In this document: piece after piece, positions 8,880 to 64,000 of the stretch
How positions within the stretch are numbered: the stretch's first letter is position 1
How the letters are laid out: each line of letters starts with the position of its first letter
Origin: a virus
IMG/VR virus record: IMGVR_UViG_3300027668_001405
Coordinates: 1 to 64,000 of that record
DNA length: 64,000 bases
Strand: one strand, 5' to 3'
The notes under the pieces: model-generated
Database searches by the model: none
What the model saw: the letters and a program-made list of their open reading frames with translations, nothing else
What the model was told of the DNA's origin: nothing
Translations under genes and position numbers: made by a program

Positions 8880-8892
8880 GGAGTAGCATAAC

Positions 8893-19219: not shown

Positions 19220-19220
19220 C

Positions 19221-19719: not shown

Positions 19720-19727
19720 GAGACAAC

Positions 19728-21054: not shown

Positions 21055-21060
21055 TATACA

Positions 21061-27982: not shown

Positions 27983-28339
27983 ATGTCGACTAATAATAAT
28001 GACAAAAGCGCCTCAGTTAACTTTTTTAAGTTAACTGGATACTACAACATTAATGATATTAAGTATGATCTTCTTAAAATCATTGCCCCATATGATGGGT
28101 ATATGTATAACGAAAAAGAGACTGAGAAACTTCTCGGTGTGTTTGAATCGTACTTAGGCGATCTCAAACGTTCTTTCAAAATCTTCTCATTTGTTATTGA
28201 GAATACTGAGAAAGAAAACGCAATTACATTTGATATTCAAATTAAGATGCAAAAAGATCGAAGCCCTAAGAAGCTTAAAATTCACGTAGGGAAACTTTGG
28301 GTAGAAGTAAAACCTAAGGTAGAGCCGACAGATGCGTAA
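27983..28339 (+). CDS. hypothetical protein
   Basis: 118-aa ORF with AAGGA SD. Confidence 0.65.
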   Translation: MSTNNNDKSASVNFFKLTGYYNINDIKYDLLKIIAPYDGYMYNEKETEKLLGVFESYLGDLKRSFKIFSFVIENTEKENAITFDIQIKMQKDRSPKKLKIHVGKLWVEVKPKVEPTDA

Positions 28340-29513
28340 GCTATTTTACATGGGGTTAGAACCCTACGAAGGCAGGTATACATTACAGTTGCAAGACTGG
28401 AGTGAACGTGCTTTCAAGAAGCGTGGGATAGAATATGTAGTTGTTCCTGGCGAGACAATTGACGACACTAAAGCAATTAGTGTTGGACAAGTATTAGATG
28501 CACATGGACGTTCGTTCTTTGGAATGAGCCAACTAATGAATCTAGTACAGATGATGCGTAGCGGAGAATGTAGTGGGGAGGATGTTGTTTTCTTTGAAGA
28601 CATGTTTCAACCTGGTATGGAATCTCTACCATACATTATGTGTCAGATACCAGAAGAGCAACGACCTAAAATATTCTTGCGTTGTTTAGCACAGGCAGTA
28701 GACCCAGATGACTTTGTTCATGTATGGGGTATGAGCAAGTGGATGTCTTTATACGAGCAGATGTGTAATGAGATTCCTAACGTTCATATACTAGCAACAA
28801 ACGAAGAAATGGTTGCACATATGCGTATTGCTAATTGGACTGCTCCAATTTTTAATATCAGTGGACTTAGCTTTGGTAAGGAAGAAGTTCTTACTAGAGT
28901 GGAACACAAAGTTAAACCATGGAAAGAACGTAGTGACCGTGTAGTATTTGCGGCACGTTTTGATCAAGAGAAACAGCCAGACTTTTTTATGGATGTTATT
29001 GAAAAGGTTAAAGCAATACGTCCTGACGTTGAGTTTGCAGTGCTAAGTGGCGGACCATTACGTAGCAACAATCAGAAGTATTTAGATCGTGCGTTACAGA
29101 TGGAACAAGATGGTAAACTAACAATCCTTAAAGACTTACAAAAGAATGATTACTACAATGTAGTTAATGATTCTAAAGTTATGTTCAATTGTGCATTGCA
29201 AGACTGGGTATCTAATACCGTAAGTGAAGCAGACGCATTAGGTTGTAATGTTGTTTATCCTGCATACAGAAGTTTCCCTGAAACATTTGCTAACGACTAT
29301 ACTAGACTTTACACACCGTGGAGTCAAGACAGTGCAGTTGAAAAGATTCTAGCTGGTCTAGATTGGCCTAGTGAGAACATGGGAAAAATTAGTAACTGGA
29401 CTGATGGTACAATCGATCGTATGATTGACATCATGGAAGGAAGCTACAAGAAGAACATATGGGCTCGTAACGATAATCGTTATAGAGATCACGTAGCGGA
29501 GGCAAAGTATTAA
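28332..29513 (+). CDS. GT-B (family 4-like) glycosyltransferase
   Basis: FAARFDQEKQP, EADALGCNVVYP...FPE. Confidence 0.8.
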   Translation: MRKLFYMGLEPYEGRYTLQLQDWSERAFKKRGIEYVVVPGETIDDTKAISVGQVLDAHGRSFFGMSQLMNLVQMMRSGECSGEDVVFFEDMFQPGMESLPYIMCQIPEEQRPKIFLRCLAQAVDPDDFVHVWGMSKWMSLYEQMCNEIPNVHILATNEEMVAHMRIANWTAPIFNISGLSFGKEEVLTRVEHKVKPWKERSDRVVFAARFDQEKQPDFFMDVIEKVKAIRPDVEFAVLSGGPLRSNNQKYLDRALQMEQDGKLTILKDLQKNDYYNVVNDSKVMFNCALQDWVSNTVSEADALGCNVVYPAYRSFPETFANDYTRLYTPWSQDSAVEKILAGLDWPSENMGKISNWTDGTIDRMIDIMEGSYKKNIWARNDNRYRDHVAEAKY

Positions 29514-49593: not shown

Positions 49594-50904
49594 ATGCATT
49601 TAGACAACGGTATCATTAAAGATTCAATTACGATAATTAAAAAAGCAACTAACTCAACATACAATTTCTTTTGTATCCCACGAGTAAAAACGATTGCTAT
49701 AATAACATTCGCAGTACTATTAAGCACAACAATTAATTCGTATATGCGACCAATCCAACAAAAACTACACGATGGAATCAATTTCGTTTATGAATATAAC
49801 GAACCAATCGGTGAAGCAATATACGAAGTTAATGGGTTCTTATTTAATGGTAAGAGTTTTGATGCTGAACGTATTGCTAAACGTGTAATATATGATTCGT
49901 ATAGTTCAGTTGTAATAGTTACAGTAGCGTCTAAAGATAAAACAGCAAACAAAGGTATGGCTGGACGAGGCACTGGATTCTTTATTGAAGTAACAGATGA
50001 CTACGCACTTATTGCTACCAACCATCACGTAGTAGATGGGCATATCAACGACAAAACATTTGAGATTTCAATTGGAACATCTACAGAAATGTGGACTTAT
50101 GATGTTGAACTTATTGGCTATGACCAAGTAGCAGATGTTGCAGTTCTAAAAATTCTTAAAAAAGACAACGAAGATTGGAAAGCACTTGAGTGGTCAACAC
50201 AAGACTCTATTAGTGTAGGCGATCCTGTTGTAGTTATTGGACACGGTATGAGTATGCCTTGGACAAGTACACAAGGACATGTTGTTTACAAGGATAGATT
50301 TGGTGCAAGACCATATTCATTAATGCTACAAGTTGACGCAGTTATTAACCAGGGCAACAGTGGTGGACCAGTTATTGATACTAACGGCAAGGTTGTTGGT
50401 ATAGCACAAAGCATTTACAGCCCAGGTAGAAAGATTCCAGGTTGGGATGGTATTGGAATGGCAGTACCTGTAAGACAAGCAAAGCGAGCAATTGAATACA
50501 TTATTAGTCCACTATATATCTCTAAAGGATTTGTACCTTATGCAGAGTTTCCTTTTATGCTAGGAACATTTACACTAGATGAAGTTAAAGATGTTGCACG
50601 TGATGATAGAAGATTTGCATACATTAATTACCCAGAGATAAAAGAAGATGGAACACTTGTACCTAAAACAGTAGGTGAGAAGTCAGGATTCTTACAGGGC
50701 GATATTATAACAAAGATTAATGATATTGATGTATACTCAAGCTTCTATGTATTAAGAGAAACAATATATGCATTTCCAGGTGATATATGGACTGTTACAT
50801 TTACACGTGATGGCGAAGTAATGACTAAGGATATTGCACTAAGTGAAATGGACCATGATAAACTTGTTAAATCTTTAAAGCGTCGAGCTACTGGTGGTAA
50901 GTGA
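49594..50904 (+). CDS. HtrA/DegP-like trypsin protease with PDZ domain
   Basis: N-terminal TM, GTGFF, TNHHVV, DVAVL, GNSGGP, GDIITKIN. Confidence 0.9.
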   Translation: MHLDNGIIKDSITIIKKATNSTYNFFCIPRVKTIAIITFAVLLSTTINSYMRPIQQKLHDGINFVYEYNEPIGEAIYEVNGFLFNGKSFDAERIAKRVIYDSYSSVVIVTVASKDKTANKGMAGRGTGFFIEVTDDYALIATNHHVVDGHINDKTFEISIGTSTEMWTYDVELIGYDQVADVAVLKILKKDNEDWKALEWSTQDSISVGDPVVVIGHGMSMPWTSTQGHVVYKDRFGARPYSLMLQVDAVINQGNSGGPVIDTNGKVVGIAQSIYSPGRKIPGWDGIGMAVPVRQAKRAIEYIISPLYISKGFVPYAEFPFMLGTFTLDEVKDVARDDRRFAYINYPEIKEDGTLVPKTVGEKSGFLQGDIITKINDIDVYSSFYVLRETIYAFPGDIWTVTFTRDGEVMTKDIALSEMDHDKLVKSLKRRATGGK

Positions 50905-51119
50905 AGCCTAAGACACACTACGATTTACTAACACACAGACATGCTCCTATCAAATGCTTTACTTGGTTCCCTAAACGTATGACAAGTGGCAAATTAGTGC
51001 TTGTTGGCACATATTACCAAGTAGTTACGAACATCAGAAGTGCAGATCCACGTCATTTGTGGATAGATAGCGAATTCTATACAGAAGCAGAGCTATTCCT
51101 TATAAAACTATCAAAATAA
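50901..51119 (+). CDS. small hypothetical
   Basis: GTGA overlap; ends FYTEAELFLIKLSK. Confidence 0.6.
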   Translation: MKPKTHYDLLTHRHAPIKCFTWFPKRMTSGKLVLVGTYYQVVTNIRSADPRHLWIDSEFYTEAELFLIKLSK

Positions 51120-51153
51120 ACCAAAATAAACCAAATTAATTGCAATTTACCGG

Positions 51154-51182
51154 TTGACAAGTAAGACGTCTTGCCGTATAAT
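51154..51182 (+). promoter_or_regulatory. sigma70 promoter carrying the conserved 22-bp motif
   Basis: TTGACA-17-TATAAT; identical 22-mer at 971-992. Confidence 0.85.
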
Positions 51183-51217
51183 TAGTATATAAGTTAAACA
51201 AAAGAAGGAAAGATAAA

Positions 51218-51397
51218 ATGATTAGATTAGTACTTGCGTTTTTATGTTTTATTTTAGCAGTTGGTTGCATTGACGGTCCTAGCGGATATGAGTCAGATTG
51301 GTGGGCTGGTTGTTTTGGATTTATGTTTACTGGTATTGCGTTGTTCCTATGGGCACTACGTGATGGAAAAGTAGCAGAACTTAACGAGATTAAATAA
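51218..51397 (+). CDS. 59-aa two-TM membrane protein
   Basis: Translated by hand: MIRLVLAFLCFILAVGCIDG...; AAGGA SD. Confidence 0.65.
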   Translation: MIRLVLAFLCFILAVGCIDGPSGYESDWWAGCFGFMFTGIALFLWALRDGKVAELNEIK

Positions 51398-51400
51398 AGG

Positions 51401-51429
51401 TTGACAAGTAAGGCTTCTTGCCTTACAAT
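51401..51429 (+). promoter_or_regulatory. sigma70 promoter carrying a variant of the 22-bp motif
   Basis: TTGACA-17-TACAAT; GGTTGACAAGTAAGGCTTCTTG. Confidence 0.8.
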
Positions 51430-51485
51430 AGTATTATATGCCAAAAAAGAAAACTATTTCAAACTTTGAAGAAGGAAAAAAAGAT

Positions 51486-52610
51486 ATGAAAACTGCAGCA
51501 TCAGAATCGCGTACTGTGAAAATTAGTGAAGCTACTACACTTATTACACGTGCATTTAAAAAGAAGCGTCCTGTGTTTTTGTGGGGTCCTCCAGGAATTG
51601 GTAAATCCGAACTAGTGCAAACTATTGGTGACAGTGGTGCTCTTGGCAATACACTTGTTATTGATATGCGTCTTGCATTATTTGAGCCAACTGACTTACG
51701 TGGGTATCCTGTACCTAATATGGAAACAGGTGTTATGCAATGGCTTCCGCCAGCAGACTTGCCAAGCAAGGAACTAGCGGCAAAGTACGATACAGTAATT
51801 GTATTCCTAGACGAGATGAACTCAGCGGCACCAAGTGTGCAGGCAGCGGGTTATCAATTAATTTTAAATCGACGTATTGGACAGTATGTACTTCCAGATA
51901 ACGTTGTAATGATTGCCGCAGGTAATCGTGAGACAGACAAAGGTGTTACTTATCGTATGCCTAAGCCACTTGAGAATCGTTTTGTACACTTTGAATTACG
52001 TGTAGATTTCCAAGATTGGTTAAACTGGGCAGTACACAATAACGTTGACGCAGACGTAGTTGGTTACTTGTCATTTGCTAAAGGCGATCTTTATAACTTT
52101 GATCCACAATCAAGTTCACGTGGATTTGCTACGCCTCGAGCTTGGACGTTTACATCAGAACTTATTGATGATGCAGATGATCTAAGTGATTCATTACAGA
52201 CTGACTTAGTTGCAGGTTGTGTTGGAGAAGGTATTGCTGTTAAGTTTATGGCACACCGTAAGATTGCAGGCGACCTTCCTATTCCAGAAGATGTACTTGA
52301 TGGTAAGGTTAAAACTATCAAAACTAACGAAGTGTCAGCAATGTATGCAATGGCAACTAGCTTGTGTTATGAGCTACGTGATCGACATATTGCTGGTGAG
52401 AAAGCTGGTGCAGATTCTAAAGAGATGGAAAAGTATCACAAGAGCTTCTCAAACTTTATTGGGTTTATGATGGACACAATGGAAACTGAGATGGTTGTTA
52501 TGGCATCCAGGATTGCAATGCAACAGTATAAGCTAGTACCTAAGCAAAAGAAAATTGAACGCTTTGATGAATATTTTGGACGTTATGGTCGACTCGTACT
52601 TGACGCCTAA
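51486..52610 (+). CDS. MoxR/CobS-like AAA+ ATPase
   Basis: Start 51486; GPPGIGKS, FLDEMN, AAGNR, PLENRF. Confidence 0.88.
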   Translation: MKTAASESRTVKISEATTLITRAFKKKRPVFLWGPPGIGKSELVQTIGDSGALGNTLVIDMRLALFEPTDLRGYPVPNMETGVMQWLPPADLPSKELAAKYDTVIVFLDEMNSAAPSVQAAGYQLILNRRIGQYVLPDNVVMIAAGNRETDKGVTYRMPKPLENRFVHFELRVDFQDWLNWAVHNNVDADVVGYLSFAKGDLYNFDPQSSSRGFATPRAWTFTSELIDDADDLSDSLQTDLVAGCVGEGIAVKFMAHRKIAGDLPIPEDVLDGKVKTIKTNEVSAMYAMATSLCYELRDRHIAGEKAGADSKEMEKYHKSFSNFIGFMMDTMETEMVVMASRIAMQQYKLVPKQKKIERFDEYFGRYGRLVLDA

Positions 52611-52618
52611 GTTGGAAG

Positions 52619-52645
52619 AGGGGGAGACAGTTAATCTCTCCCTTT
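52619..52645 (+). terminator. intrinsic terminator-like hairpin
   Basis: AGGGGGAGA-CAGTTAA-TCTCTCCCT followed by TT, just after the ATPase stop. Confidence 0.55.
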
Positions 52646-52674
52646 ACAATCCACGCCAAAGGACTAACATTCGA

Positions 52675-52926
52675 TTGTATGGACTTAAATGCAAAGATTG
52701 GACCCCTTTAGATATATTTGATTACAAGCACAAATGGTTAGCAGAGGAACATGAGGAACTACGCATTGACCCAGATAGACTTACACAAGCCGCTAAATGG
52801 TGTAAAACAAATCTCTTCCACCAAGACTTTACTATTAACAAATTTGCTTCACCAGACGACAGTCATATGATTTTGTTTAAAAACAGTGCAGAAGCTATGC
52901 TATTTAGACTCAGTATTAATGGTTGA
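52675..52926 (+). CDS. small hypothetical (C-terminal motif family)
   Basis: Probable TTG start after AAGGA (uncertain); ends FKNSAEAMLFRLSING. Confidence 0.6.
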   Translation: MYGLKCKDWTPLDIFDYKHKWLAEEHEELRIDPDRLTQAAKWCKTNLFHQDFTINKFASPDDSHMILFKNSAEAMLFRLSING

Positions 52927-52951
52927 CAATAGGTATTGTTTATCGTATAAT
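52923..52951 (+). promoter_or_regulatory. sigma70 promoter
   Basis: GGTTGACA-17-TATAAT. Confidence 0.85.
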
Positions 52952-52984
52952 GTATATAATAGTTAGAAATTAGGAGTTTTATTA

Positions 52985-54163
52985 ATGTTAAAAACTGCAG
53001 AAGAAAGAATTACACAGTCTAGAGTTAGACTTTTACTAACAAAACCTTTCTTTGGTCAACTAGCTGTACGTTTAAAACTAGAAGATGCAAGTGACTGGAT
53101 CCCTACTGCCGCAACAGACGGTCGTAGATTTATGTTTAACAGAGGTTTTGTAGATAGTCTTACAGATGAGATGCTAGACTTTCTAGTTGGACATGAAGTA
53201 TTACATTGTGTATTTGATCACATGGAATCTAGAGGCGAACGAGATGCACAGCTATATAATGCTGCCGCAGACTATAACATTAACATGACATTAGTAGAGC
53301 AGAATATTGGAGCTCCAATTACAGAAGATAAACTAGGCGGCGGAAAGATATGCTTAGATTGGAAATACACTGGTTGGAATAGCTATGAGATATATGATGA
53401 CTTGAAGGCGAATAACGAAGATGCTAAAGGCATGGACGTTCACTTAGAAGATGGCGTAGATGGAGAAGGCAACGCAGTTGCAGATCCTAATGCAGGAAGC
53501 CCAATGTCAGAAGAAGAAAAGAAGCAACTCTCAGATGAGATTAAGCAAGCTACAATACAAGCGGCACAGAGTGCAGGACAAGGTGTTCCAGATGCTGTTA
53601 AACGTTTAATCAATGAGCTTATTGCTCCTAAGATGGACTGGCGTGATGTGCTAGCTACTAACATTGAAAGTTCAATTAAAGCAGACTTTACATTTATGCG
53701 TCCTAGTAAGCGTTCAGGAGAAGTTATATTTCCAGGCATGGACAGAGACGAATGTTTAGACATTGCAGTTGGACTTGATACATCAGGTAGTATTAGTCAA
53801 GTTATGTTACGTGACTTCCTAAGTGAAGTACAAGGCATTATGGATCAATACGCTCAGTACAAAGTACACATTTTCCAATTTGATACAGGTGTGTATGGTG
53901 CAGAAGAATTTACAAGTGATGATGGTCGTACAATGCAAGACTATGAATTAAAAGGTGGCGGTGGAACAGACTTTGATGTTATCTTTAATTACTTAGAGCA
54001 GTATGATATTGATCCGGACCAGTTGGTTATATTCACAGATGGATATCCATGGGGTTCATGGGGCAACCCAGACTACTGTGATACATTATTTTGTATCCAC
54101 AGCGACAAACAAAAACGTATAGAAGCGCCATTTGGTGTAACAGTACACTATGAGGCAGCATAA
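52985..54163 (+). CDS. metallopeptidase-like (HExxH) plus VWA domain protein
   Basis: TAATDG, HEVLH, DTSGS, GGGGTDF, FTDG. Confidence 0.88.
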   Translation: MLKTAEERITQSRVRLLLTKPFFGQLAVRLKLEDASDWIPTAATDGRRFMFNRGFVDSLTDEMLDFLVGHEVLHCVFDHMESRGERDAQLYNAAADYNINMTLVEQNIGAPITEDKLGGGKICLDWKYTGWNSYEIYDDLKANNEDAKGMDVHLEDGVDGEGNAVADPNAGSPMSEEEKKQLSDEIKQATIQAAQSAGQGVPDAVKRLINELIAPKMDWRDVLATNIESSIKADFTFMRPSKRSGEVIFPGMDRDECLDIAVGLDTSGSISQVMLRDFLSEVQGIMDQYAQYKVHIFQFDTGVYGAEEFTSDDGRTMQDYELKGGGGTDFDVIFNYLEQYDIDPDQLVIFTDGYPWGSWGNPDYCDTLFCIHSDKQKRIEAPFGVTVHYEAA

Positions 54164-55494: not shown

Positions 55495-55788
55495 ATGGCG
55501 ATTGAACGGAAAGACAGATCCTTCGATCTGATCTTTGACCAGGTATCTATGGATCATGTTCCTGCTGAATATATCAGAGAAATTATGGTTGACTTAGGTA
55601 CTGGTGAAAGAATAACACTAACTAAAGATGACTTGTTGCTGATTAAGAACAAATCAGCTGATGACATTATATCTGCATTAAGTGTAGATAACATGTCTAA
55701 TATTAGTTTGAAGCTAGACTATGAAGCAATTAAGTCAGATGTGTTACGTGGAGTAACAGGCTTCTTAGGAAAGCATTTTGACGAATAG
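55495..55788 (+). CDS. hypothetical protein
   Basis: 97-aa ORF with AAGGA SD. Confidence 0.7.
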   Translation: MAIERKDRSFDLIFDQVSMDHVPAEYIREIMVDLGTGERITLTKDDLLLIKNKSADDIISALSVDNMSNISLKLDYEAIKSDVLRGVTGFLGKHFDE

Positions 55789-56467
55789 TAACAATATTTG
55801 GATGTGTGGCATCCCCGGTAGTAGATGGAGCGGAATTGATATACAGATCCGCTCCGTGCTATCGTGCGATCGTTCAGATGAAACACGAGCTAGAACCTTT
55901 TACCATAGAGCATATAACCCCTCGGACAGCAATAACGGACATCGTGGCTCTTATTGGGGACCCGGTATGGGCTGTGGAGAGGACTGGACTGATTTCAATC
56001 ATTTAACAAAAGATAAGATTGAGACTGATATACATAACGTTTTTAACGGAGATGGATATCGAGTTATAAAGAACCATTTCTTAGCTCGTCACTTTAATTT
56101 AGATTACATTTGGAATAACTTTCCAGGTGATAAAATAGTACTCATTTATAGAGAACCTCAAAAGAGTTTTGCATGGTGGAGTGAAGTAATGGATTTTAGT
56201 GATCATCACTACCCAAACTACACGCCAGGATACACAGACTACAACACTATGCGTGAGCTACTTTGGAAAGAGAGTGCAAAAATTACAGACTTTGCACTAC
56301 AAAAAGGAATACAGTTTAAACCATACAATGTATCAGAATTTAAACATTGGAATGGATACGATATTGATATAGCTTCGGAGTATGAGATGATAAATATTAC
56401 TAAGCACAATGATGTATATATTGCATCAGTAACAATACCGGAAAAACTAAATGCAGTCCCCCTTTAA
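55778..56467 (+). CDS. P-loop sulfotransferase-like protein
   Basis: TTG start; IWMCGIPGSRWSG; IVLIYREPQKSFAWW. Confidence 0.5.
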   Translation: MTNSNNIWMCGIPGSRWSGIDIQIRSVLSCDRSDETRARTFYHRAYNPSDSNNGHRGSYWGPGMGCGEDWTDFNHLTKDKIETDIHNVFNGDGYRVIKNHFLARHFNLDYIWNNFPGDKIVLIYREPQKSFAWWSEVMDFSDHHYPNYTPGYTDYNTMRELLWKESAKITDFALQKGIQFKPYNVSEFKHWNGYDIDIASEYEMINITKHNDVYIASVTIPEKLNAVPL

Positions 56468-57155
56468 AACACCATACCATTTTGATAAGTTTAAAACTGA
56501 TCACGAAGGCGAATATTCTAAGAGTATTGGCGTGTTTCAAGGTGATTGGGCTGATGAGATTGTGCATGCAAGAAGCAAGGCTATGGACGAACAGAAATAC
56601 AATACACAACGATACGAACATGCTGCCAATGCTAAGAGCGAGAATCATACAGAAGAAGATAAAGAAAACACAGATGGTAAGCCTTCTGCAATGATGTTCC
56701 GCAAGATAAATTTTGATAAATACCCAGGAGAATTTCCACTATTCCAAAAGATAGTGGAGCATCTAAAGTTTGATACAAGTAAGAAACTGACATGTAAATT
56801 TAATGATCAATATCCAAATGATCAGCTTATGTGGCACATAGACAACTTGCCCGGTAACCCACGTAAGGAACGTGTAATTGACAATCCAGAGTTTAACTAC
56901 GCTAATGACAATAAGATACGTTTTTTAATTACGATGGAAGATTGGGAACCAGGACAGATAATACAGTTTGGTAACAGAATATATACTCAATGGAAAGCAG
57001 GTACTGCTTTTACTTGGGAATGGAGTACGCTACCACACTTAACATGGAACGGCAGTTGGACCAAACGTCCATGTCTACAACTAACAGGAACTGCAACGCC
57101 AGATACATGGAATATTGTAAATGAAGGCAATGCAGAAACAACCTATAAAATTTAA
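56451..57155 (+). CDS. 2OG-Fe(II)/cupin-fold oxygenase-like protein
   Basis: WHID (HxD), IRFLITMEDW, QWKAG, PHLTWNG. Confidence 0.7.
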   Translation: MQSPFKTPYHFDKFKTDHEGEYSKSIGVFQGDWADEIVHARSKAMDEQKYNTQRYEHAANAKSENHTEEDKENTDGKPSAMMFRKINFDKYPGEFPLFQKIVEHLKFDTSKKLTCKFNDQYPNDQLMWHIDNLPGNPRKERVIDNPEFNYANDNKIRFLITMEDWEPGQIIQFGNRIYTQWKAGTAFTWEWSTLPHLTWNGSWTKRPCLQLTGTATPDTWNIVNEGNAETTYKI

Positions 57156-57167
57156 AGGATAATAATT

Positions 57168-58592
57168 ATGGCAGAAAACAAGTTACCCTCGGATACGTTT
57201 TGTATACTACCGTGGATACATTTAAGCACAAGACCAGACGGAAGTATGCGTGTGTGTTGTACAGCTAATGCAAGTGCAGTAGGAGCAACAAATGATAAAG
57301 TACATGGCGGTCGAGTTGGAATTGTAAAAACAGATGATGGTAAACCTGCTAACTTAAACAACAGTGATTTGAATAGTGCGTGGAACAATAGTTACATGCG
57401 TGGCGTTAGACAACAAATGATGGCTGGTGAACAACCACCTAGTTGTGTAAAATGTTATAAAGAAGAAGCGGCTGGACACAGGTCTAAAAGACAGTGGGAA
57501 ACAGACTATTGGATTAAAGACGGTATCGACGTTGAAGATTTAATAAGGGAAACTTACGAAGATGGAAGTACTGATTCTAAACTACGCTATATTGATATCC
57601 GTATGGGGACGAAATGCCAGTTGGGGTGCGTTATGTGTAGCCCACATGACTCTTCAGGCTGGGTAAAAGATTGGAACAAACTATATCCACAAATTACAAA
57701 TGAATCCTTAAAAGAAACTATGAATTGGGATGCTAAAGGTAAGACCTTTGGTGCAAACTATAACTGGCACAAAAACAACCCAACGTTTTGGGATCAGTTT
57801 TATGCACAGATTCCTTATATCAGACAACTATACTTTGCTGGTGGTGAATCAACAGTTATTGAAGAACATTATTCAATCCTATCTAAAGTTATTGAGATGG
57901 GTTACGCACATCAAATTGAAGTGCGTTATAACAGTAATGGTATTGAACTACCAGATCGTTTGCTAGAGCTATGGACACACTTTGAAAAGGTACGTTTCCA
58001 TTACAGTATTGACAGCATTGGTCCAATGAATGATTATATTCGTTATCCAAGTGAATGGTCACATCAGCTAGCAATGTTTGAACGCCTAGATCAAAAGACA
58101 AGTAACAACGTAGAAATTACAATTGCGTGTGCAGTTAATGCACTTAACATTCATTACATTCCAGACTTCCTTAAATGGAAACTTCAGGATAGCGGACTTA
58201 AGAAAACAAATATGTGGCCTTTTGGAGCAGGTGGTATTAACTATCACTTTGTATACTGGCCCGGACATTTGAATGTTAAGATATTGCCAGATGAATTCCT
58301 AGACAAAACAGAAGCCAAGTATGAAGAATTTATTCAATGGTGGAAAGAGAATTGGGAGCTAGGTGTTCCAAGTTGGCATAAGGGTAAAGTAGACTATCAG
58401 AAATGGGAAGATGCTAGTTATGGTATCAAACGTTTACGTGGTATGATTAGCTTTGCTCGTAGTGAAGATTGGACACGCCGACTACCCGAGTTTAGAGAGT
58501 ATATAAACAAGTTAGATGAATTGCGTGGAACAGACTTCCGTGCAACATTCCCAGACATGGCTTACTTGCTTGATGAACCGGATGACACCTGA
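57168..58592 (+). CDS. radical SAM enzyme with N-terminal SPASM/twitch domain (subfamily B)
   Basis: CILPWIH...RVCC, CVKC, DIRMGTKCQLGCVMC, AGGE. Confidence 0.92.
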   Translation: MAENKLPSDTFCILPWIHLSTRPDGSMRVCCTANASAVGATNDKVHGGRVGIVKTDDGKPANLNNSDLNSAWNNSYMRGVRQQMMAGEQPPSCVKCYKEEAAGHRSKRQWETDYWIKDGIDVEDLIRETYEDGSTDSKLRYIDIRMGTKCQLGCVMCSPHDSSGWVKDWNKLYPQITNESLKETMNWDAKGKTFGANYNWHKNNPTFWDQFYAQIPYIRQLYFAGGESTVIEEHYSILSKVIEMGYAHQIEVRYNSNGIELPDRLLELWTHFEKVRFHYSIDSIGPMNDYIRYPSEWSHQLAMFERLDQKTSNNVEITIACAVNALNIHYIPDFLKWKLQDSGLKKTNMWPFGAGGINYHFVYWPGHLNVKILPDEFLDKTEAKYEEFIQWWKENWELGVPSWHKGKVDYQKWEDASYGIKRLRGMISFARSEDWTRRLPEFREYINKLDELRGTDFRATFPDMAYLLDEPDDT

Positions 58593-58788
58593 GGTTCGTA
58601 AAGAGGCCCATCGACGTTTTTGGATGATCAAGGGCCACTTAGCCTGTAAGGATTGGGACGATGATGCATTATACAAAATGCACGAAAGTTACTTGAAGCG
58701 TTTATGGGGTAATGAAGAAGCATACCTTTGGGAAGAAGGTTTTGAAGAAGCATACTTTAAGTTAACAAATGAACAACCATCAAACTAA
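58573..58788 (+). CDS. 71-aa aromatic/acidic small protein between radical SAM genes
   Basis: FWMIKGHL...LWEEGFEEAY; overlaps both neighbours. Confidence 0.65.
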   Translation: MNRMTPEVRKEAHRRFWMIKGHLACKDWDDDALYKMHESYLKRLWGNEEAYLWEEGFEEAYFKLTNEQPSN

Positions 58789-59980
58789 TACAGACACACA
58801 TTGCACACTGCCTTGGAGTGGTGCGGCAGTTGATGCTGGTGGCAGGGTTGTACCTTGTTGTAGATGGATGGGACCACATGGTGACTTAGACAATGCTCCT
58901 AAAATAGCTAATGGATTAGAAAACGCAAGGAACAGTAAGTTCTTTGAAACAGTACGACAAAGTATGTTAGATGGAAAACGTATTAATGGATGTAAGAAAT
59001 GTTGGGAAGAAGAAGATTTCTTTGGTCCTGAACATCAACAGCGTTGGTTACGTTTACAGCACAATCATAACATACAGGCACTGTCAGTTAATGGAGTAGC
59101 AAACATGACTACCACTGCTCCTACAAAGCTACGGTACCTAGAAACAGGTATAAGCAACCTATGTAACTTTGCTTGTGTAATGTGCAACTCTGCAACCAGC
59201 AGTACGATACACAATATAACAGTCAAAGGCAAAATGCCTAAGAGCTTCCATCAAAACAATAGCGTAATAGATTCAGACTTATCAGAGCTACAATATTTGA
59301 AATTTGTAGGTGGTGAGCCCATGATGGAACGCAAGCATGATGAATTATTAGAAAAGGTTGTTGCATTAAACAATAACCCAACATCACTAGAATTAGAGTA
59401 CCATACTAATGCAAGTATATTTCCAAGCGAGCGTGTAACTACTGCATGGAAGAAAGTAAAATCAGTAAGGATTATATTTAGTTTAGACGGTGTGTATGAG
59501 AAATCTAAACTACAGCGTCCAGGTAGATACAAATGGCAAGATGTAGAAGATACAGTACATAAATATGTACAGCTAGCAGACAAAGTTAATATTATATTCT
59601 CAAGCAATACAGTGTTGACAGCATTGAATGTTGGGCAAGTAATAGATATACTTGAATGGTTATACTCGAGAATAGGACACAAACAACTTGGGTGGTTTAA
59701 TGTACATAAACTGTTTAATGAAAGGTTTAAGTATATAGACCTACGTAATATAAGTCAAGAGAAGAAAACTATTATAAGAAAAGAGTTAACAGATTGGGCG
59801 GCAACAGGTCACCCAGCACTAGACACTCCGCTGAAATCAGTGTATAATGAGACTATAGAAGCACTAGATACACCACCTAGTGGTACATTGACTCTTAGTA
59901 GAGAGTTAATATTAGAAAAGCATTTCCAAAATGATATATGGAAGTACTTCAAAGAAGAATTAAAGGACCTAGAAATATAA
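58769..59980 (+). CDS. radical SAM enzyme, subfamily B
   Basis: CTLPW...VPCC, CKKC, SNLCNFACVMC, VGGEP. Confidence 0.92.
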   Translation: MNNHQTNTDTHCTLPWSGAAVDAGGRVVPCCRWMGPHGDLDNAPKIANGLENARNSKFFETVRQSMLDGKRINGCKKCWEEEDFFGPEHQQRWLRLQHNHNIQALSVNGVANMTTTAPTKLRYLETGISNLCNFACVMCNSATSSTIHNITVKGKMPKSFHQNNSVIDSDLSELQYLKFVGGEPMMERKHDELLEKVVALNNNPTSLELEYHTNASIFPSERVTTAWKKVKSVRIIFSLDGVYEKSKLQRPGRYKWQDVEDTVHKYVQLADKVNIIFSSNTVLTALNVGQVIDILEWLYSRIGHKQLGWFNVHKLFNERFKYIDLRNISQEKKTIIRKELTDWAATGHPALDTPLKSVYNETIEALDTPPSGTLTLSRELILEKHFQNDIWKYFKEELKDLEI

Positions 59981-60516
59981 TGAAATACATTTTAGTAGCT
60001 CTAAAAGCAGAATTGCCAGAGCATAATTTAGACCCTACATCATACAAAGTATGGTATACTGGTGTTGGTAAAGTAAATGCATCTATATGGGCAACACTTG
60101 CATGCATACAAAAAGACTGTGAAGCAGTTATTAACTACGGAACAGCAGGTGCATTTAATAGTGAACTAGCAGAACAGTTACTACACATTGGTACAGTAAA
60201 GCAACGTGACATGGATACAAGGCCACAAGCAGAACTAGGTGTTACTCCGTTTGAAGACAGTGGATTTGAAGGTGACATTAAACTTAGTAATAGTGCATAT
60301 ACATGTAGCACTGGTGATAACTTTGTAACAGAGGTTCCAGAATTAGAAAGTGATTGTGTTGATATGGAAGCATATGCAATTGCTAAAGTATGTAAGCACT
60401 TCCAAAAGAATTGCATAGTTTACAAATATATTAGTGACCTAGCAGATTCAGATGCTGCGGCAACGTGGGTAGAGAATCAACACAAAGGAGCAGATGCTTT
60501 TATAGCAATGACCTAG
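59980..60516 (+). CDS. MTA/SAH (5'-deoxyadenosine) nucleosidase-like protein
   Basis: Start 59980; TGVGKVNA, NYGTAG, STGDNFV, DMEAYA, KYISD. Confidence 0.82.
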   Translation: MKYILVALKAELPEHNLDPTSYKVWYTGVGKVNASIWATLACIQKDCEAVINYGTAGAFNSELAEQLLHIGTVKQRDMDTRPQAELGVTPFEDSGFEGDIKLSNSAYTCSTGDNFVTEVPELESDCVDMEAYAIAKVCKHFQKNCIVYKYISDLADSDAAATWVENQHKGADAFIAMT

Positions 60517-60517
60517 T

Positions 60518-61774
60518 ATGAGTGGATTTTGTTCATTACCTTTTGTACAGTACAGCACATATAACGGAGGCCGTTATAGACTTTGTTGTATGGCTAAAGA
60601 ACCAACTACACTTGTTAACCAAGAAGAGTTGGGTATTAATGGTACATGGAATCACGACTATATTAAAGATGTAAGACGTAGAATGACTGCCGGTGAGAAG
60701 TTATCCGAGTGCAGTGAATGCCATCACTTAGAACGTAATGGAATAATGAGTTCACGTCAATGGGAAAACAAAGTATGGGCAGATGTAATTGATGGAATCG
60801 TAGCAGACGCAAGTGCTAATGATTGGGAAGTTGATCAGCCATTACAGTTTGACTTTAGATTAGGAAACCTATGTAACCTACAGTGTCAGATGTGTAACAA
60901 AGAAGCATCACACTTGGTAAGCGTAGAACGTGCGGCAATGATTAAACGTGGACTAGGAGCTGACCACCCAGATTGGGAAGGACAGATTGCAAGCAAGAAA
61001 GAAGCACTTCTGCAACCTGGAATTGATTGGGTAGACTTTAAAGCCATGTTACCATATGCTCGTAAGATAAAACTAATAGGTGGCGAACCTACAGTAGCAA
61101 CAGATATGTTTAAGCTACTAGATATTGCAACAGAAAGCGGACACGCAGAACACATTGAATTAAGCTTCTACACAAATATTACAAACATGCAAGACAAGTG
61201 GCTAGCTCAGTTAGCTAAGTTTGAGAAAGTCATTGTTAACTGTTCACTAGAAGGAATGGGCGACATGAATGACTATTTGCGTCCACCTAGTAAATGGGCT
61301 AGTGTGTGGAAGAACTTTGATAAATTAGTACAGTTTGCTGATACTAAACCGGGTAAGCGTATTAAGGTACGGGTTACTACAGTAAACCAAATGACTAATG
61401 CATTGCACATAGTTCCTTTTTGGAAGTTTATGCATGATTACCAGATGACTAGTAATAGAGGCATTGGAATGAGTACCAATCAGCTAGTGGAGCCTGCTTA
61501 CTACAGCATGGCACATGCACCTGAATGGTTGAAAGAACAACAACGTGAACAGATTTTGGAATTTCTTAAGTCCATTGACAACAGCCCTCACTTTGAGCAA
61601 TATGAAGAACCACTCATGGAAGTGGTTAACTTTAGTCTTGATAGTGAGCACAAGTTTGATGCTAACATCATGCAACAATATGTCAAGGTCACCGAAAACT
61701 ACGACAGATTCAGAGGACACATGGTTACCAAAGTGTCTCCCGAATTTGAACGAATTAAAAAAGACTCCGAGTGA
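60518..61774 (+). CDS. radical SAM enzyme, subfamily B
   Basis: CSLPF...RLCC, CSEC, DFRLGNLCNLQCQMC, IGGEP. Confidence 0.92.
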   Translation: MSGFCSLPFVQYSTYNGGRYRLCCMAKEPTTLVNQEELGINGTWNHDYIKDVRRRMTAGEKLSECSECHHLERNGIMSSRQWENKVWADVIDGIVADASANDWEVDQPLQFDFRLGNLCNLQCQMCNKEASHLVSVERAAMIKRGLGADHPDWEGQIASKKEALLQPGIDWVDFKAMLPYARKIKLIGGEPTVATDMFKLLDIATESGHAEHIELSFYTNITNMQDKWLAQLAKFEKVIVNCSLEGMGDMNDYLRPPSKWASVWKNFDKLVQFADTKPGKRIKVRVTTVNQMTNALHIVPFWKFMHDYQMTSNRGIGMSTNQLVEPAYYSMAHAPEWLKEQQREQILEFLKSIDNSPHFEQYEEPLMEVVNFSLDSEHKFDANIMQQYVKVTENYDRFRGHMVTKVSPEFERIKKDSE

Positions 61775-61810
61775 TTACTCTTGGACATGTAAATGGAGAG
61801 TTAGATTCTA

Positions 61811-63019
61811 ATGAACTTTGGTTTTAAAAGTTATAACAGTTGGGACCCACTAAAGAAAGTATTGTTGGGTAGTACACTACCTGAGGGCTTCTTTGCAGAT
61901 TTCCCAGACCCTAAAGTAGCAGATGCTATGACTACAGTTAACGAGGAAACTCGTGAAGACTTAAACAACTTGCAATCAGTATTTGAGAGCAAGGGCATTG
62001 AAGTACATAGGATGCCAGAAGCATGTGTATTAAAGAATAGAAGGTTTAACAGTGTAGCTGAATTTATAGACATGCATGGATATATTCCTAAACCTTTTAA
62101 TGCACCAAGAGATGACCAAATCATTTTTGGAGAGCATATGATTACAGGAACATCAAATCCTGTACATAGAATATTCCATGGTACTAGAGAAGATACATTT
62201 AACATATTTGATAAAAAAGCACCCTGGGCAGGCTGTGATGATTTAATTGATATTGCAGATCCCAATCAAGAACTAAACATAATTGAAGCAGTTGGCAAAC
62301 CTAACTTTACAATGAGTTGGCCTAGTATTATGAGAGCAGGCAAGGACATTATAATTGATATACATGATTTTAATGGACCTACTAGACAGCTAGCTGAAAA
62401 CTGGGTAGACCGTTTTAATGAGAAGTTTGGTTATAAGTTTAGAATTAATACAACTACAATGGGTGGACACACTGACGCAGTAATGGCACTTGTTAAACCT
62501 GGGCTTATAATAAGTCATGTTAATGTAAACAAGTATGAAGAAACATTTCCAGGTTGGGATGTAATTAAAATAGATAGAACACACAACGATCATACAGTAG
62601 CTTGGAACGAATTCCGTATCTCAGAAAAAGATAAATGGAGAGGTAACAAACTAAATCCAGTAGCAGATTATTGGATTGCAGGACAAGAACACAACGTAGC
62701 ATTGAATAAATTTATTGACTTATACATGCACCCTAGCGTTGGCAGTTGTTTTGAAACAAACTTTGATGTAAACTGTGTAAGCATAGACGCTAATACAGTA
62801 GTTGCAAGTGGACCTAGTAAAGTGTTAGAAGATAAGCTAGGCAAGCACAACGTAGATGTAATTACGTCTAACATGAGGCACAGATTCTTTTGGGATGGTG
62901 GCTTACATTGTGCTACAGTTGATTTATACCGTGAAGGCGAGATGGAAGATTACTTTCCTGAACGCAGTGCAGGAGTTGATTTTGGTAAAGTGTGGGGCAA
63001 TAACGAAACACGCCGGTAA
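61811..63019 (+). CDS. amidinotransferase (pentein superfamily)
   Basis: NSWDPLKKV, PRD, GHTD, RHRFFWDGGLHC. Confidence 0.85.
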   Translation: MNFGFKSYNSWDPLKKVLLGSTLPEGFFADFPDPKVADAMTTVNEETREDLNNLQSVFESKGIEVHRMPEACVLKNRRFNSVAEFIDMHGYIPKPFNAPRDDQIIFGEHMITGTSNPVHRIFHGTREDTFNIFDKKAPWAGCDDLIDIADPNQELNIIEAVGKPNFTMSWPSIMRAGKDIIIDIHDFNGPTRQLAENWVDRFNEKFGYKFRINTTTMGGHTDAVMALVKPGLIISHVNVNKYEETFPGWDVIKIDRTHNDHTVAWNEFRISEKDKWRGNKLNPVADYWIAGQEHNVALNKFIDLYMHPSVGSCFETNFDVNCVSIDANTVVASGPSKVLEDKLGKHNVDVITSNMRHRFFWDGGLHCATVDLYREGEMEDYFPERSAGVDFGKVWGNNETRR

Positions 63020-63066
63020 ATTAATTGCATAAATATAATTATCAACGCATATAATAAAGGAAAACA

Positions 63067-63945
63067 ATGACTCGCATAGCTAAAGATATTACAGCAGGCA
63101 AGGACTTCATAGTCCATGTATTCGATGCATCTGAAGTTGACGTCAACGACAATTATAGATTATACGAAGCGTTTGAAAGTGGATGGCCTGTAGTTATTAA
63201 GAACTATAAAATAGAAGGACTTGATTACGATTACTATGATAATTTACCAGACTGGAATATTACAGATAACAAATGGGTAATGCCCTGGTACAATAGTCAT
63301 ATTAAGGCTCGTGACAGACTACGTAACGAGCGTGACTGGAGTGAAGATGAAATAGATTTGTTCCATAAAAAGCACAAACAATCAAACAAGGCATGGACTG
63401 ATAGTTTCGATAATATGTTTCCACAGTATAACACGACTGAGAAAATGCTCAGTCACAGGTACAATACATTAGTAGAGAACAAACTACACTTAGACGAGCT
63501 GGACGAACAGCATACTGGTAATGAACAGCAAATGCGTATGTTTGTACAGCTAGATAAAAAACGTCCTAGAGTATTATCATTTGGTCCTGACTTGGAAAAA
63601 ATGTACAATGATTACAAAGATGAGTTTAACTTGGGTGAGATTGACAAAAGCAATACACACAAATTTATAACTGAGATGCGTGATCGTTGTGTATGGAACG
63701 ACAAGGCTTGGGACCAGTTTCATCACCCACTACATTACATAACGTTTGATCCAGGTGACATTTGGTTCTTTAATGCACAATGGATTACACATCAAATTGT
63801 GTTTGGTACTAAGCTACAATGCTTTGAATGTGATATTCAAAACGATAGCTTACTACACCCAGAGTGGGCAATGAAGCAAAGAATACAAACTTTAGATAAC
63901 AACGACAATTCAGCATGGGGCGGTACTACCGTCAGCATGGAATAA
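63067..63945 (+). CDS. Kdo-hydroxylase-like Fe(II)/2OG oxygenase
   Basis: LHLDE, MRMFVQLD, FDPGDIWFFNAQWITHQIVFG. Confidence 0.55.
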   Translation: MTRIAKDITAGKDFIVHVFDASEVDVNDNYRLYEAFESGWPVVIKNYKIEGLDYDYYDNLPDWNITDNKWVMPWYNSHIKARDRLRNERDWSEDEIDLFHKKHKQSNKAWTDSFDNMFPQYNTTEKMLSHRYNTLVENKLHLDELDEQHTGNEQQMRMFVQLDKKRPRVLSFGPDLEKMYNDYKDEFNLGEIDKSNTHKFITEMRDRCVWNDKAWDQFHHPLHYITFDPGDIWFFNAQWITHQIVFGTKLQCFECDIQNDSLLHPEWAMKQRIQTLDNNDNSAWGGTTVSME

Positions 63946-63957
63946 CAAGGAATAATA

Positions 63958-64000
63958 ATGAATAAACCAGTAAACGCATGGAGCGAGTTTCAACCATTAC
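63958..64000 (+). CDS. second amidinotransferase (5' fragment, partial)
   Basis: MNKPVNAWSEFQPL resembles the NSWDPL start of 61811; AAGGA SD. Confidence 0.5.
   Translation, partial: MNKPVNAWSEFQPL

Follow-up and report, generated by a model that had tools for sequence, protein, structure and literature searches.

Candidate sugar-tailoring cluster rich in radical SAM enzymes and amidinotransferases in an uncultured marine jumbo myovirus

The window analyzed here (64,000 nucleotides, positions 1 to 64,000 of the record) belongs to IMGVR_UViG_3300027668_001405, a 138-kb record of an uncultured marine jumbo myovirus that contains 15 matches to the N_Twi radical SAM family and 8 other radical-SAM-type matches. 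Between positions 55778 and 64000, nine complete open reading frames (ORFs) and a partial tenth, all on the plus strand, lie exactly where a first-pass annotation made from the sequence alone had placed them. They are listed below with the nearest upstream promoter, and genes are named by their start positions.

52923-52951, plus strand: perfect sigma-70-type promoter (TTGACA-17-TATAAT), from a genome promoter scan
55778-56467, plus strand: sulfotransferase-like protein, 229 aa, TTG start
56451-57155, plus strand: Fe(II)/2-oxoglutarate-oxygenase-fold protein (DSBH/cupin), 234 aa
57168-58592, plus strand: N_Twi radical SAM 1, 474 aa (NF033640, 418.7 bits)
58573-58788, plus strand: 71-aa ORF, filling the one 176-nt interval of the cluster, between two radical SAM genes
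58769-59980, plus strand: N_Twi radical SAM 2, 403 aa (NF033640, 212.7 bits)
59938-60516, plus strand: MTA/SAH/5'-deoxyadenosine-type nucleosidase, short form, 192 aa as annotated (PNP_UDP_1, 57 bits)
60518-61774, plus strand: N_Twi radical SAM 3, 418 aa (NF033640, 294 bits)
61811-63019, plus strand: amidinotransferase 1, 402 aa
63067-63945, plus strand: KdoO-family Fe(II)/2OG dioxygenase, 292 aa
63958-64000 (continuing to genome position 65025), plus strand: start of amidinotransferase 2, 355 aa

Intergenic spacings across the cluster are -11, -17, +12, -43, +1, +36, +47, and +12 nt. The genome has 23 near-perfect sigma-70 sites, 22 of which agree with the local coding strand; the lone misoriented site (78463, minus strand) lies inside a plus-strand block. 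No further promoter of this kind separates the site at 52923 from the cluster, so that an early transcription unit running through these genes probably begins there. No plus-strand sigma-70 consensus promoter was found between 52923 and 65902, and no T4 late motif was found for the cluster stretch, which therefore fits one early operon. Position 64000 is the edge of the window and no biological boundary: the block continues as far as roughly 85 kb in genome coordinates, and the cluster is the promoter-proximal quarter of this ~29-kb block, which is probably transcribed early, rather than a unit in itself. Profile and annotation searches of the 55- to 85-kb block recovered no glycosyltransferase, flippase, nucleotidyltransferase, or membrane protein, and no CTP_transf_3 (KdsB/NeuA-type) gene was found in the 138-kb record, itself only about 40% complete.

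The gene assignments of the first-pass annotation were all upheld by HMM, PDB, Foldseek, and motif checks, the sulfotransferase-like one only via language-model neighbors. All three radical SAM proteins exceed the curated cutoff of NF033640 (N_Twi_rSAM, 170 bits) and, like that family, carry an N-terminal Cys motif together with CxxxCxxC. The subfamily NF033640 was defined from sequence, and no reaction is assigned to it, so that membership gives architecture and not function; a literature search found no member with a published activity. The paralogs are only 21 to 33% identical to each other. More than 2,400 proteins are homologous to the product of 57168, and none of the best 120 listed falls below 64% identity. 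Many marine phages encode an ortholog, as do about 60 Bdellovibrionota genomes, in which identity is 55 to 63%. In the tree 57168 falls within a short-branched mixed clade, and 58769 and 60518 sit on long branches. Gene 57168 is the slowly evolving core enzyme, and 58769, found in seven related viral loci at 48 to 53% identity, is an optional, fast-evolving cassette. Gene 60518 (70 to 90% identity in relatives) is kept within the phage group and has no close bacterial orthologs. The 71-aa ORF is conserved in a single relative (38% identity over 58 aa) and is missing from four others that have the neighboring gene and wherever both radical SAM genes abut; it is likely a genuine small gene that the phage can do without, and its absence from most relatives rules it out as a conserved precursor peptide.

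The nucleosidase scores 84.6 bits against PRK05634, although PRK05634 and the MTAN models all stay below their equivalog cutoffs. Its best PDB matches are all MTA/SAH nucleosidases (8.6e-11), whose MEA and ISDxAD motifs it retains. Since relatives measure 178 to 191 aa, the true start is perhaps about 14 codons downstream. A homolog follows the 57168 ortholog in those of the related loci L096 to L116 that reach beyond that ortholog, and the protein is more simply read as an enzyme that clears 5'-deoxyadenosine and MTA.

The closest PDB matches of 61811 are SxtG (5.4e-5), AGAT (9.7e-5), and StrB1 (1e-4), and 63958 is its paralog (25% identity, E = 1e-31). Residues D101, H220, D222, and C367 are invariant in 61811. 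The last of these lies within GGxHCxTxD, the C-terminal active-site motif with the catalytic Cys that both paralogs share with those pentein-fold enzymes; unlike them, the phage proteins fall below the Pfam PF02274 threshold, and their mutual identity is low. Gene 61811 is an optional cassette, present only on the contigs behind L002/L107, L003/L111, L110, and L115. Gene 63958 is 79 to 91% identical in relatives, is followed by a radical SAM gene of the C-terminal-SPASM type, and has homologs in Campylobacter phage CP220 (gp086, 24% over 376 aa, 7e-22) and cyanophage S-SCSM2R (ORF266 and ORF309).

Of the two oxygenases, 63067 is itself below the PF11004 (Kdo_hydroxy) threshold, but the domain occurs in 34 of its 38 phmmer-recovered homologs. 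A Foldseek search with its AF2 model (pLDDT 89.6) placed KdoO at ranks 1 to 5 (E = 7e-11 to 2e-10, TM 0.62 to 0.67), with the next fold at 2e-5, and the iron triad HxD...H is invariant (H141, D143, H242). The protein thus resembles KdoO (Kdo 3-hydroxylase; PDB 5yw0, 6a2e, and 5yka) in fold, triad, and transitive homology, a likeness of sequence and fold in a phage-encoded protein only about 15% identical. KdoO acts on Kdo2-lipid A, Kdo being a sugar acid. The 56451 protein (H129-x-D131...H196; AF2 pLDDT 85.9) gave proline 3-hydroxylase (1e5r) and AspH as top Foldseek matches (E about 3e-5, TM 0.5). Its 142 homologs are all metagenomic and carry no Pfam domain, and it aligns with S-SCSM2R ORF308 (38% over 63 aa), which adjoins an amidinotransferase. 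Profile and structure-database searches with 55778 returned neither a Pfam nor a PDB match; its nearest ESM Atlas clusters are viral "sulfotransferase family" (0.98), with PF13469 in more distant ones. An N-terminal G-x-P-G-S-R/K-W-S is conserved in 55778, a paralog lies at genome positions 108032 to 108778, and the gene is missing from L106, L108, L112, and L113.

Gene order across related contigs gave a mixed answer. The backbone 57168-59938-60518-63067-63958 is retained on many of them; 55778, 56451, 58769, and 61811 are optional, and the KdoO-like gene lies on the opposite strand in nine of nine relatives examined. The nine genes had been proposed as one pathway, but given these differences they are not a self-contained one, and the conserved partners of 57168 lie elsewhere:

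17255-22170, plus strand: dispersed conserved partners of 57168, contiguous with its ortholog in phage loci L118 to L121
from 17255, plus strand: 234-aa protein with a DxD-like motif
from 17946, plus strand: 341-aa protein with methyltransferase-like motifs
from 19456, plus strand: 87-aa protein, partner of 57168 in L118 to L121
from 21061, plus strand: radical SAM, 369 aa, neighbor of the 57168 ortholog in phages and bacteria

Among 78 Bdellovibrionota loci, counterparts of 21061, 17946, and 17255 accompany the 57168 ortholog in 57, 32, and 23, respectively, along with an ortholog of genome gene 83875. The neighbors that lack a phage counterpart are most often GT2 glycosyltransferases, in three groups (14, 13, and 7 loci), together with an SDR and a PP-loop enzyme. 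A candidate assignment of 17255 as a GT-A enzyme failed a profile-profile test.

The cluster had also been put forward as an undescribed system, but phage modules combining radical SAM and amidinotransferase genes have been known since 2010, when Timms et al. described one in Campylobacter phages CP220 and CPt10 (PMC2853527). CP220, a large T4-related phage with 11 or 12 radical SAM genes, carries an exchangeable module of five radical SAM genes and one amidinotransferase gene that was given no function (PMC2853527). The module includes gp086, and two GT-A genes and a PAP2 phosphatase gene come after it as a whole. The CP220 radical SAMs differ from those here in being shorter, with a C-terminal Cys-rich domain, and are not of the N_Twi type (they resemble genome genes 79942, 15345, and 65026); the module also lacks a KdoO-like, nucleosidase, or sulfotransferase-like gene. 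Two further examples come from marine T4-type phages, the glycosyltransferase-rich auxiliary cluster of S-SCSM2R (PMC12801897) and the pelagimyophage "host recognition clusters," in which glycosyltransferases, lipopolysaccharide genes, and radical SAM cassettes are mixed (PMC7029224). The S-SCSM2R run (2OG-GT-GT25-GT-aminotransferase-rSAM-GT-2OG-amidinotransferase-GT2) holds homologs of 56451 and of the amidinotransferases, and a second amidinotransferase sits after KdsB/KdsA. Homologs in CP220 and S-SCSM2R, both cultured, are 21 to 38% identical. Amidinotransferase, 2OG oxygenases, aminotransferase, radical SAM cassettes, and variable regions are common to these marine clusters and ours; they have one or few radical SAMs and many glycosyltransferases, whereas our block has many radical SAMs and no glycosyltransferase. 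Radical-SAM-rich marine phages were described in 2017 (PMC5332604) and 2020 (PMC7029224), again without function.

We postulate, with a probability of roughly one-half, that these genes, expressed early, carry out a radical-SAM-based tailoring of a sugar destined for a glycan. What we observed directly are the identities and folds of the gene products, their catalytic motifs, the synteny, and neighborhoods shared with glycosyltransferases. The first-pass annotation had hedged between a glycan and a small molecule, and its glycan arm gains support because the bacterial orthologs of 57168 sit among GT2 genes and because the CP220 and S-SCSM2R sets lie among glycosyltransferases, a PAP2 phosphatase, and KdsA/KdsB. 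Among solved structures, only those of KdoO are a good match for 63067, which also favors a sugar.

What SPASM/twitch radical SAMs are chiefly known for is the maturation of peptides, which counts against a sugar. It is conceivable, if unlikely, that the N_Twi enzymes mature a ribosomal peptide or modify phage or host proteins, with the 2OG oxygenases as protein hydroxylases and the pentein-fold enzymes acting on protein or peptide amines or arginines. Most secondary NCBIfam matches of the three proteins are to models of peptide maturases such as PapB, SkfB, mycofactocin, and DynA, albeit far below cutoff; the best folds of 56451 are proline and Asp/Asn hydroxylases, and an Asp_Arg_Hydrox gene lies farther downstream in the block. 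AGAT/StrB1/SxtG-type amidinotransferases, however, work on small amines, the twitch domain fills the N terminus and hence leaves no RRE-like domain there, and the only small ORF is absent from most relatives, leaving no conserved precursor. An amidinotransferase and a 2OG oxygenase do occur in the S-SCSM2R virion proteome (PMC12801897). The bacterial neighborhoods are nevertheless rich in GT2 genes and not in peptidases or transporters.

A diffusible aminocyclitol-, aminoglycoside-, or guanidino-type metabolite (antibiotic, signal, or osmolyte) that is not attached to a glycan seems similarly improbable. Radical SAM dehydrogenation, transamination, and amidino transfer would parallel 2-deoxystreptamine and streptidine synthesis (BtrN/BtrS and StrB1); the PDB relatives of 61811 are all small-molecule enzymes, and the block has no glycosyltransferase. 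BtrN, a 2-deoxy-scyllo-inosamine dehydrogenase, is likewise a radical SAM with one auxiliary-cluster domain, a plausible likeness for secondary-alcohol oxidation before transamination, but the proposed analogy breaks down on architecture: its twitch domain is C-terminal, whereas here it precedes the core, and no BtrN-specific model matched in the NCBIfam search. Moreover, no exporter, resistance gene, or scaffold-forming synthase (e.g., inosose or 2-deoxy-scyllo-inosose synthase) was detected, and homologous modules in other genomes are glycosyltransferase rich.

Quite doubtful, in our view, is hypermodification of nucleic acid, in which a phage DNA base (e.g., glycosylated, aminated, or guanidinylated) or a tRNA would be decorated to evade restriction. 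Other phages use radical SAM and PLP enzymes in thymidine hypermodification, the early sigma-70 promoters fit the timing of T4 DNA-modification genes, a QueD-like gene adjoins the radical SAM module in CP220-type phages, and a GT1 domain was confirmed at 28332 to 29513. The block nevertheless contains no DNA-binding, base-exchange, or kinase/transferase gene of known hypermodification routes, the core module also lies beside GT2 genes in Bdellovibrionota chromosomes, and 63067 matches in fold a hydroxylase that acts on a sugar acid. Least probable is a collection of auxiliary genes that each act on their own (e.g., a KdoO-like modifier of LPS, a nucleosidase with a housekeeping role, and several radical SAMs whose substrates are unrelated) and are held together only by a shared early transcription unit. 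The four optional genes, the independent orientation of 63067, the divergence of the radical SAM paralogs, and the remote partners of 57168 (17 to 22 kb in the window, 83.9 kb in the genome) could suggest this. Against it, the backbone order persists, and three unrelated phage lineages share the trio of amidinotransferase, 2OG oxygenase, and radical SAM.

If a sugar is indeed tailored, the substrate would be a sugar or ulosonic acid, either nucleotide-activated or bound to a glycan, whose final place is in a glycan. We infer what class of substrate is used, in what order the steps run, and where the product goes (to the host envelope, the virion, or DNA), with the substrate evidence amounting, in our assessment, to guilt by association with distant contexts. 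Via 5'-deoxyadenosyl radicals, the N-terminal-twitch enzymes would oxidize, epimerize, deoxygenate, or rearrange sugar C-H positions, the conserved core chemistry being carried out by 57168 with radical SAMs 21061 and 83875, and 58769 and 60518 serving as lineage-specific tailoring enzymes. The PLP enzyme encoded at genome position 67318 would aminate keto intermediates, both amidinotransferases would turn the amines into guanidino groups with arginine as the donor, the KdoO-like 63067 and 56451 dioxygenases would add hydroxyls, and 55778 would perhaps add sulfate. The nucleosidase would clear the inhibitory by-product 5'-deoxyadenosine (and MTA/SAH), while SAM would come from the phage's own metK and the clusters from putative phage Fe-S assembly genes. 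Of 101 Bdellovibrionota genomes sampled, 19 carry N_Twi genes, in clusters of up to 11 copies, a patchy distribution typical of variable surface-polysaccharide islands, and the gain and loss of cassettes on a fixed backbone in the phages resembles glycan-diversity loci.

The stretch from 55778 to the window edge belongs to a single virus record of 137,797 bp, classed as linear and about 40% complete, of which the window is the first 64 kb. The family-B DNA polymerase of the record is of the T4 type (phrog_262) and closest to those of jumbo myoviruses such as Atu_ph07, Phosso, 121Q, and GAP32 (45 to 47% identity). Base composition is uniform along the window and so gives no sign that the cluster is a recent insert, and a megablast search of the stretch against 50,697 phage records returned no match. 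Tandem repeats of 12 nt (TTGCAGGATCTG, then CTCTTTAAC-type units) make up the last 100 bases of the record (137698 to 137797), probably a repetitive gene where assembly broke.

Nine co-oriented ORFs and the start of a tenth fill the stretch, overlapping or separated by gaps of at most 47 nt, with the single exception of a 176-nt interval that holds a 71-aa ORF. Their start coordinates are as follows.

55778, + strand, sulfotransferase-like gene
56451, + strand, 2-oxoglutarate (2OG) oxygenase
57168, + strand, radical SAM enzyme
58573, + strand, 71-aa ORF
58769, + strand, radical SAM enzyme
59938, + strand, nucleosidase
60518, + strand, radical SAM enzyme
61811, + strand, amidinotransferase
63067, + strand, KdoO-like oxygenase
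63958, + strand, second amidinotransferase, starting at the window edge

Profiles, motifs, and folds bore out this gene list, proposed in the first-pass annotation, gene by gene, with 55778 placed by language-model neighbors and a P-loop-like motif only. The stretch is part of a larger plus-strand block, not a unit: the block extends past the window to about 85 kb of the genome, and its downstream part carries eight further genes of the N_Twi family (NCBIfam NF033640, in which a twitch domain is N-terminal), other radical SAM genes, a PLP-enzyme-like gene (67318), and an Asp/Asn-hydroxylase-type gene. With 15 N_Twi matches above the cutoff and a further 8 of radical-SAM type, this 138-kb record ranks among the most radical-SAM-dense seen.

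The genome has 23 near-perfect TTGACA-N16-18-TAnAAT promoters, which look like phage early promoters; 12/12 matches are far commoner than chance allows. All but one follow the local coding strand, the exception being a minus-strand promoter at 78463 inside the plus-strand block. They lie on the plus strand up to 72 kb, with one more at 105.8 kb, and on the minus strand from 86 kb onwards. Examples in the window are as follows.

973, 6553, 20990, 24275, 26691, 30406, 32076, 51154, 51401, and 52923, + strand, TTGACA-N16-18-TAnAAT promoters

After those at 51154, 51401, and 52923, the next plus-strand promoter comes only at 65902, and a search of the cluster for the T4 late-promoter motif found none, which suggests that the stretch is transcribed as a single early unit. 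Directly upstream (window 49594 to 54163), all close relatives keep the same three genes ahead of the radical SAM cluster: 49594 encodes a DegP-like trypsin-PDZ protease, 51438 a MoxR-like AAA+ ATPase, and 52985 a DUF2201 metallopeptidase/VWA-like protein. The MoxR-VWA pair may be a chaperone for metal or cofactor insertion. Elsewhere, window 8893 to 10407 encodes a TctA membrane subunit of a tripartite tricarboxylate transporter (PF01970, 290 bits, 11 predicted transmembrane segments), preceded by a 352-aa gene for a possible binding protein (region 7821 to 10407). This pair is kept at 43 to 46% identity in other large viral contigs (loci L010 to L013) and could import citrate or 2-oxoglutarate.

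The three radical SAM enzymes of the stretch are members of NF033640, scoring 418.7 (57168), 212.7 (58769), and 294 bits (60518) over the full model against a curated cutoff of 170 bits. In each, a SPASM/twitch-like cysteine domain precedes the CxxxCxxC core; Pfam places SPASM at residues 12 to 97 and 12 to 79, with Radical_SAM behind it at 146 to 316 and 128 to 297. Across the N_Twi alignment, C12, C93, C96, C150, C154, and C157 are invariant and C30-C31 nearly so. In one N_Twi paralog (genome 66072 to 67325; L001 11072 to 12325), this CC pair is missing from the twitch domain, which may mean a changed or absent auxiliary cluster. The 71-aa ORF was considered as a RiPP precursor and rejected, as it is missing from most relatives, with a homolog in one only (38% identity).

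The nucleosidase 59938 is a short PNP_UDP_1 protein (PF01048, 57 bits versus a cutoff of 25.1), and its PDB relatives are all MTA/SAH or aminofutalosine nucleosidases. Its MEA and ISDxAD motifs align to the Met-Glu ribose-binding pair and catalytic Asp of PDB MTA/SAH nucleosidases (MTANs), and its first ~30 residues, the region of the N-terminal catalytic Glu, gave no alignment to MTANs. It falls under the NCBIfam equivalog cutoffs (PRK05634, 84.6 versus 129 bits; PRK05584, 67.5 versus 169) and is a short, divergent form. MTAN relieves the inhibition of radical SAM enzymes by 5'-deoxyadenosine, and MqnB and HpnG trim adenosylated intermediates. Weak matches to the futalosine hydrolase and HpnG models raised the possibility that 59938 likewise trims a pathway intermediate; because MTAN models and structures score better, we rank this below the clearing of by-product.

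The amidinotransferases 61811 and 63958 are paralogs with 25% identity. Pfam gave no match for 61811 and 15.9 bits for 63958, below the PF02274 cutoff of 22.8, and their predicted placement in the AGAT/StrB1/SxtG family rests on phmmer matches in the PDB (SxtG, AGAT, and StrB1) and on the active-site motif GGxHCxTxD, invariant in both and in phage homologs. C367, H366, H220, D222, and D101 are invariant among nine sequences that include homologs from the cultured phages CP220 and S-SCSM2R. In a different group of viral contigs (L004 to L009), a short 280-aa amidinotransferase precedes a 185-aa gene and a homolog of the PLP-enzyme-like 67318; the set resembles a minimal amine-to-guanidine module with no radical SAMs.

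Single-sequence and profile searches of the PDB found nothing significant for 55778, 56451, 63067, or the dispersed genes 17255 and 17946, so folds were needed instead. The oxygenase 63067 has no direct match in Pfam, and an exhaustive phmmer search gave 68 representative relatives, with PF11004 (Kdo_hydroxy) in 34 of the 38 that were aligned. Its AF2 model (pLDDT 89.6) has strong structural matches only to KdoO, which takes Foldseek ranks 1 to 5 (E 7e-11 to 2e-10, TM 0.62 to 0.67; next fold 2e-5), and the HxD...H triad for Fe(II) (H141, D143, and H242) is invariant. This modeled fold points to a sugar acid; KdoO itself acts on the outer Kdo of Kdo2-lipid A. Here the gene lies on the plus strand; the nine relatives that carry it all have it reversed, a single-gene inversion that suggests it has its own expression signals. 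The 56451 model (pLDDT 85.9) is a double-stranded beta-helix with proline 3-hydroxylase and AspH as top Foldseek matches (E about 3e-5, TM about 0.5); within its HxD...H motif, H129 and D131 are nearly invariant and H196 invariant, and the two most distant homologs lack HxD. For 55778, Pfam, NCBIfam, and the PDB gave no match. ESM Atlas neighbors named sulfotransferase (0.98 without Pfam, 0.93 to 0.94 with PF13469) and, by eye, a P-loop-like PGS(R/K)WS with a conserved R125...S130 make it sulfotransferase-like.

The radical SAM enzyme 57168 is exceptionally conserved, with more than 2,400 homologs in ocean metagenomes, the best 120 listed all at least 64% identical. About 60 Bdellovibrionota genomes, among them complete chromosomes and that of one cultured isolate, carry orthologs at 55 to 63% identity. 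The ortholog loci were searched with a narrower alignment as seed, the 14-sequence paralog alignment being too divergent. Among 78 bacterial loci, the neighbors include orthologs of radical SAMs 21061 (57 loci) and 83875 (51) and of 17946 (32) and 17255 (23); these genes, scattered here, adjoin the 57168 ortholog both in Bdellovibrionota and in distant phages (L118 to L121). No other gene of the stretch is a regular neighbor in the bacterial loci, with only weak matches to the nucleosidase and 60518 in one or two. A quick tree gives the 57168 orthogroup short branches on which phage and bacterial members mingle, and very long ones to 58769 and 60518. The N_Twi family was found in 19 of 101 sampled Bdellovibrionota genomes, in up to 11 copies, and two genomes have 8 to 9 genes each, mostly in one island apiece. 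Among the kept bacterial neighbors that lack a counterpart in the phages, the commonest are family-2 glycosyltransferases (three groups), an SDR, and a PP-loop enzyme.

Six bacterial loci have homologs of a Nol/NodU-like carbamoyltransferase (window 4009 to 5517; phrog_1601, 328 bits) within 10 kb of their 57168 ortholog, and this enzyme may be a further tailoring enzyme of the same pathway. Members of the 17255 family (window 17255 to 17959; about 230 aa, with an invariant VVDGDN-like motif) stand three to four in tandem beside the 57168 ortholog in distant phages L119 and L120, and some are part of fusion proteins of about 500 aa. We suspect a glycosyltransferase role: an Atlas neighbor at 0.87 and the DxD-like VVDGDN suggested the GT-A type, but hhalign against a GT2 alignment gave 0.5% probability, so the idea stays a lead only. 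In another distant phage (L127, 18478 to 21005), a B12-binding radical SAM, an HMPTM-type zinc-ribbon radical SAM, and an FkbM methyltransferase surround the 57168 ortholog, indicating that different radical SAM classes are recruited to one neighborhood.

Three independent contexts point indirectly to a sugar-type substrate: the bacterial loci and the two cultured phages. Campylobacter phage CP220 has a 63958-homologous amidinotransferase amid five radical SAM genes, with two GT-A genes and a PAP2 phosphatase directly after; Timms et al. described this set as an exchangeable module of unknown function (PMC2853527). Cyanophage S-SCSM2R has a 56451 homolog beside an amidinotransferase, within a run of five glycosyltransferases that includes an aminotransferase and a radical SAM, and a second amidinotransferase after KdsB/KdsA. 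Pelagimyophage "host recognition clusters" combine glycosyltransferases, LPS genes, and radical SAM cassettes (PMC7029224).

On the sugar reading, the radical SAM enzymes would activate C-H bonds of the substrate, the PLP enzyme would add amino groups, and the amidinotransferases would then convert these to guanidino groups; the two dioxygenases would hydroxylate, and 55778 might sulfate. The nucleosidase would remove 5'-deoxyadenosine, phage metK (41521 to 42615) would supply SAM, and the product could be destined for the host envelope, the virion, or DNA. Against this stand a block with no glycosyltransferase, nucleotidyltransferase, or membrane protein, a 138-kb record (about 40% complete) with no KdsB/NeuA-type cytidylyltransferase, the literature, in which we found no reaction for any N_Twi member, and the SPASM/twitch radical SAM enzymes in general, which are typically peptide maturases. 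We keep peptide or protein modification as an alternative; as to a RiPP maturase, the adjacent conserved precursor and peptide-recognition element are missing, the sole small ORF being mostly absent from relatives and the N-terminal domain being a twitch domain. Hypermodification of nucleic acid and synthesis of a diffusible aminocyclitol-like metabolite are also kept.

The stretch could also be a mere depot of independent auxiliary genes, and we retain this alternative as well. In 37 loci from related viral contigs, a backbone (54150-54523-54759-55495-57168-59938-60518-63067-63958) is kept. Each of 55778, 56451, 58769, and 61811 is absent in part of the relatives, and an additional amidinotransferase paralog is present in one. 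Relatives thus show a fixed scaffold with exchangeable cassettes; random shuffling, which the first-pass annotation had named as a refutation of a common pathway, is not what they show.

Extending the sugar reading, we speculate, with a probability of about one in five, that phages and predatory Bdellovibrionota share an exchangeable N_Twi toolkit that makes previously unknown, heavily modified (amino-, guanidino-, hydroxy-, and possibly sulfo-) sugars, installed early on the envelope of the infected cell, where they would alter surface identity and block superinfection or predation.

Radical-SAM-rich clusters in large phages, some with amidinotransferases, are an already known kind of cluster, still unexplained; in 2017, 12 radical SAM genes were described in one T4-like environmental genome (PMC5332604), and 15 years of reports of such swarms have assigned no product. 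Four things are new here: how far the radical SAM genes have expanded, the predominance among them of the N-terminal-twitch family, a core enzyme linked to glycosyltransferase-bearing Bdellovibrionota islands, and a KdoO-family member in the cluster. A cultured Bdellovibrio isolate with close 57168 orthologs makes the search for the product genetically tractable. If the sugar reading is true, it would define a reaction class for an uncharacterized NCBIfam subfamily and a new way for phages to re-dress the host surface; if the shared toolkit is real, the N_Twi family would be a new branch of radical carbohydrate chemistry.
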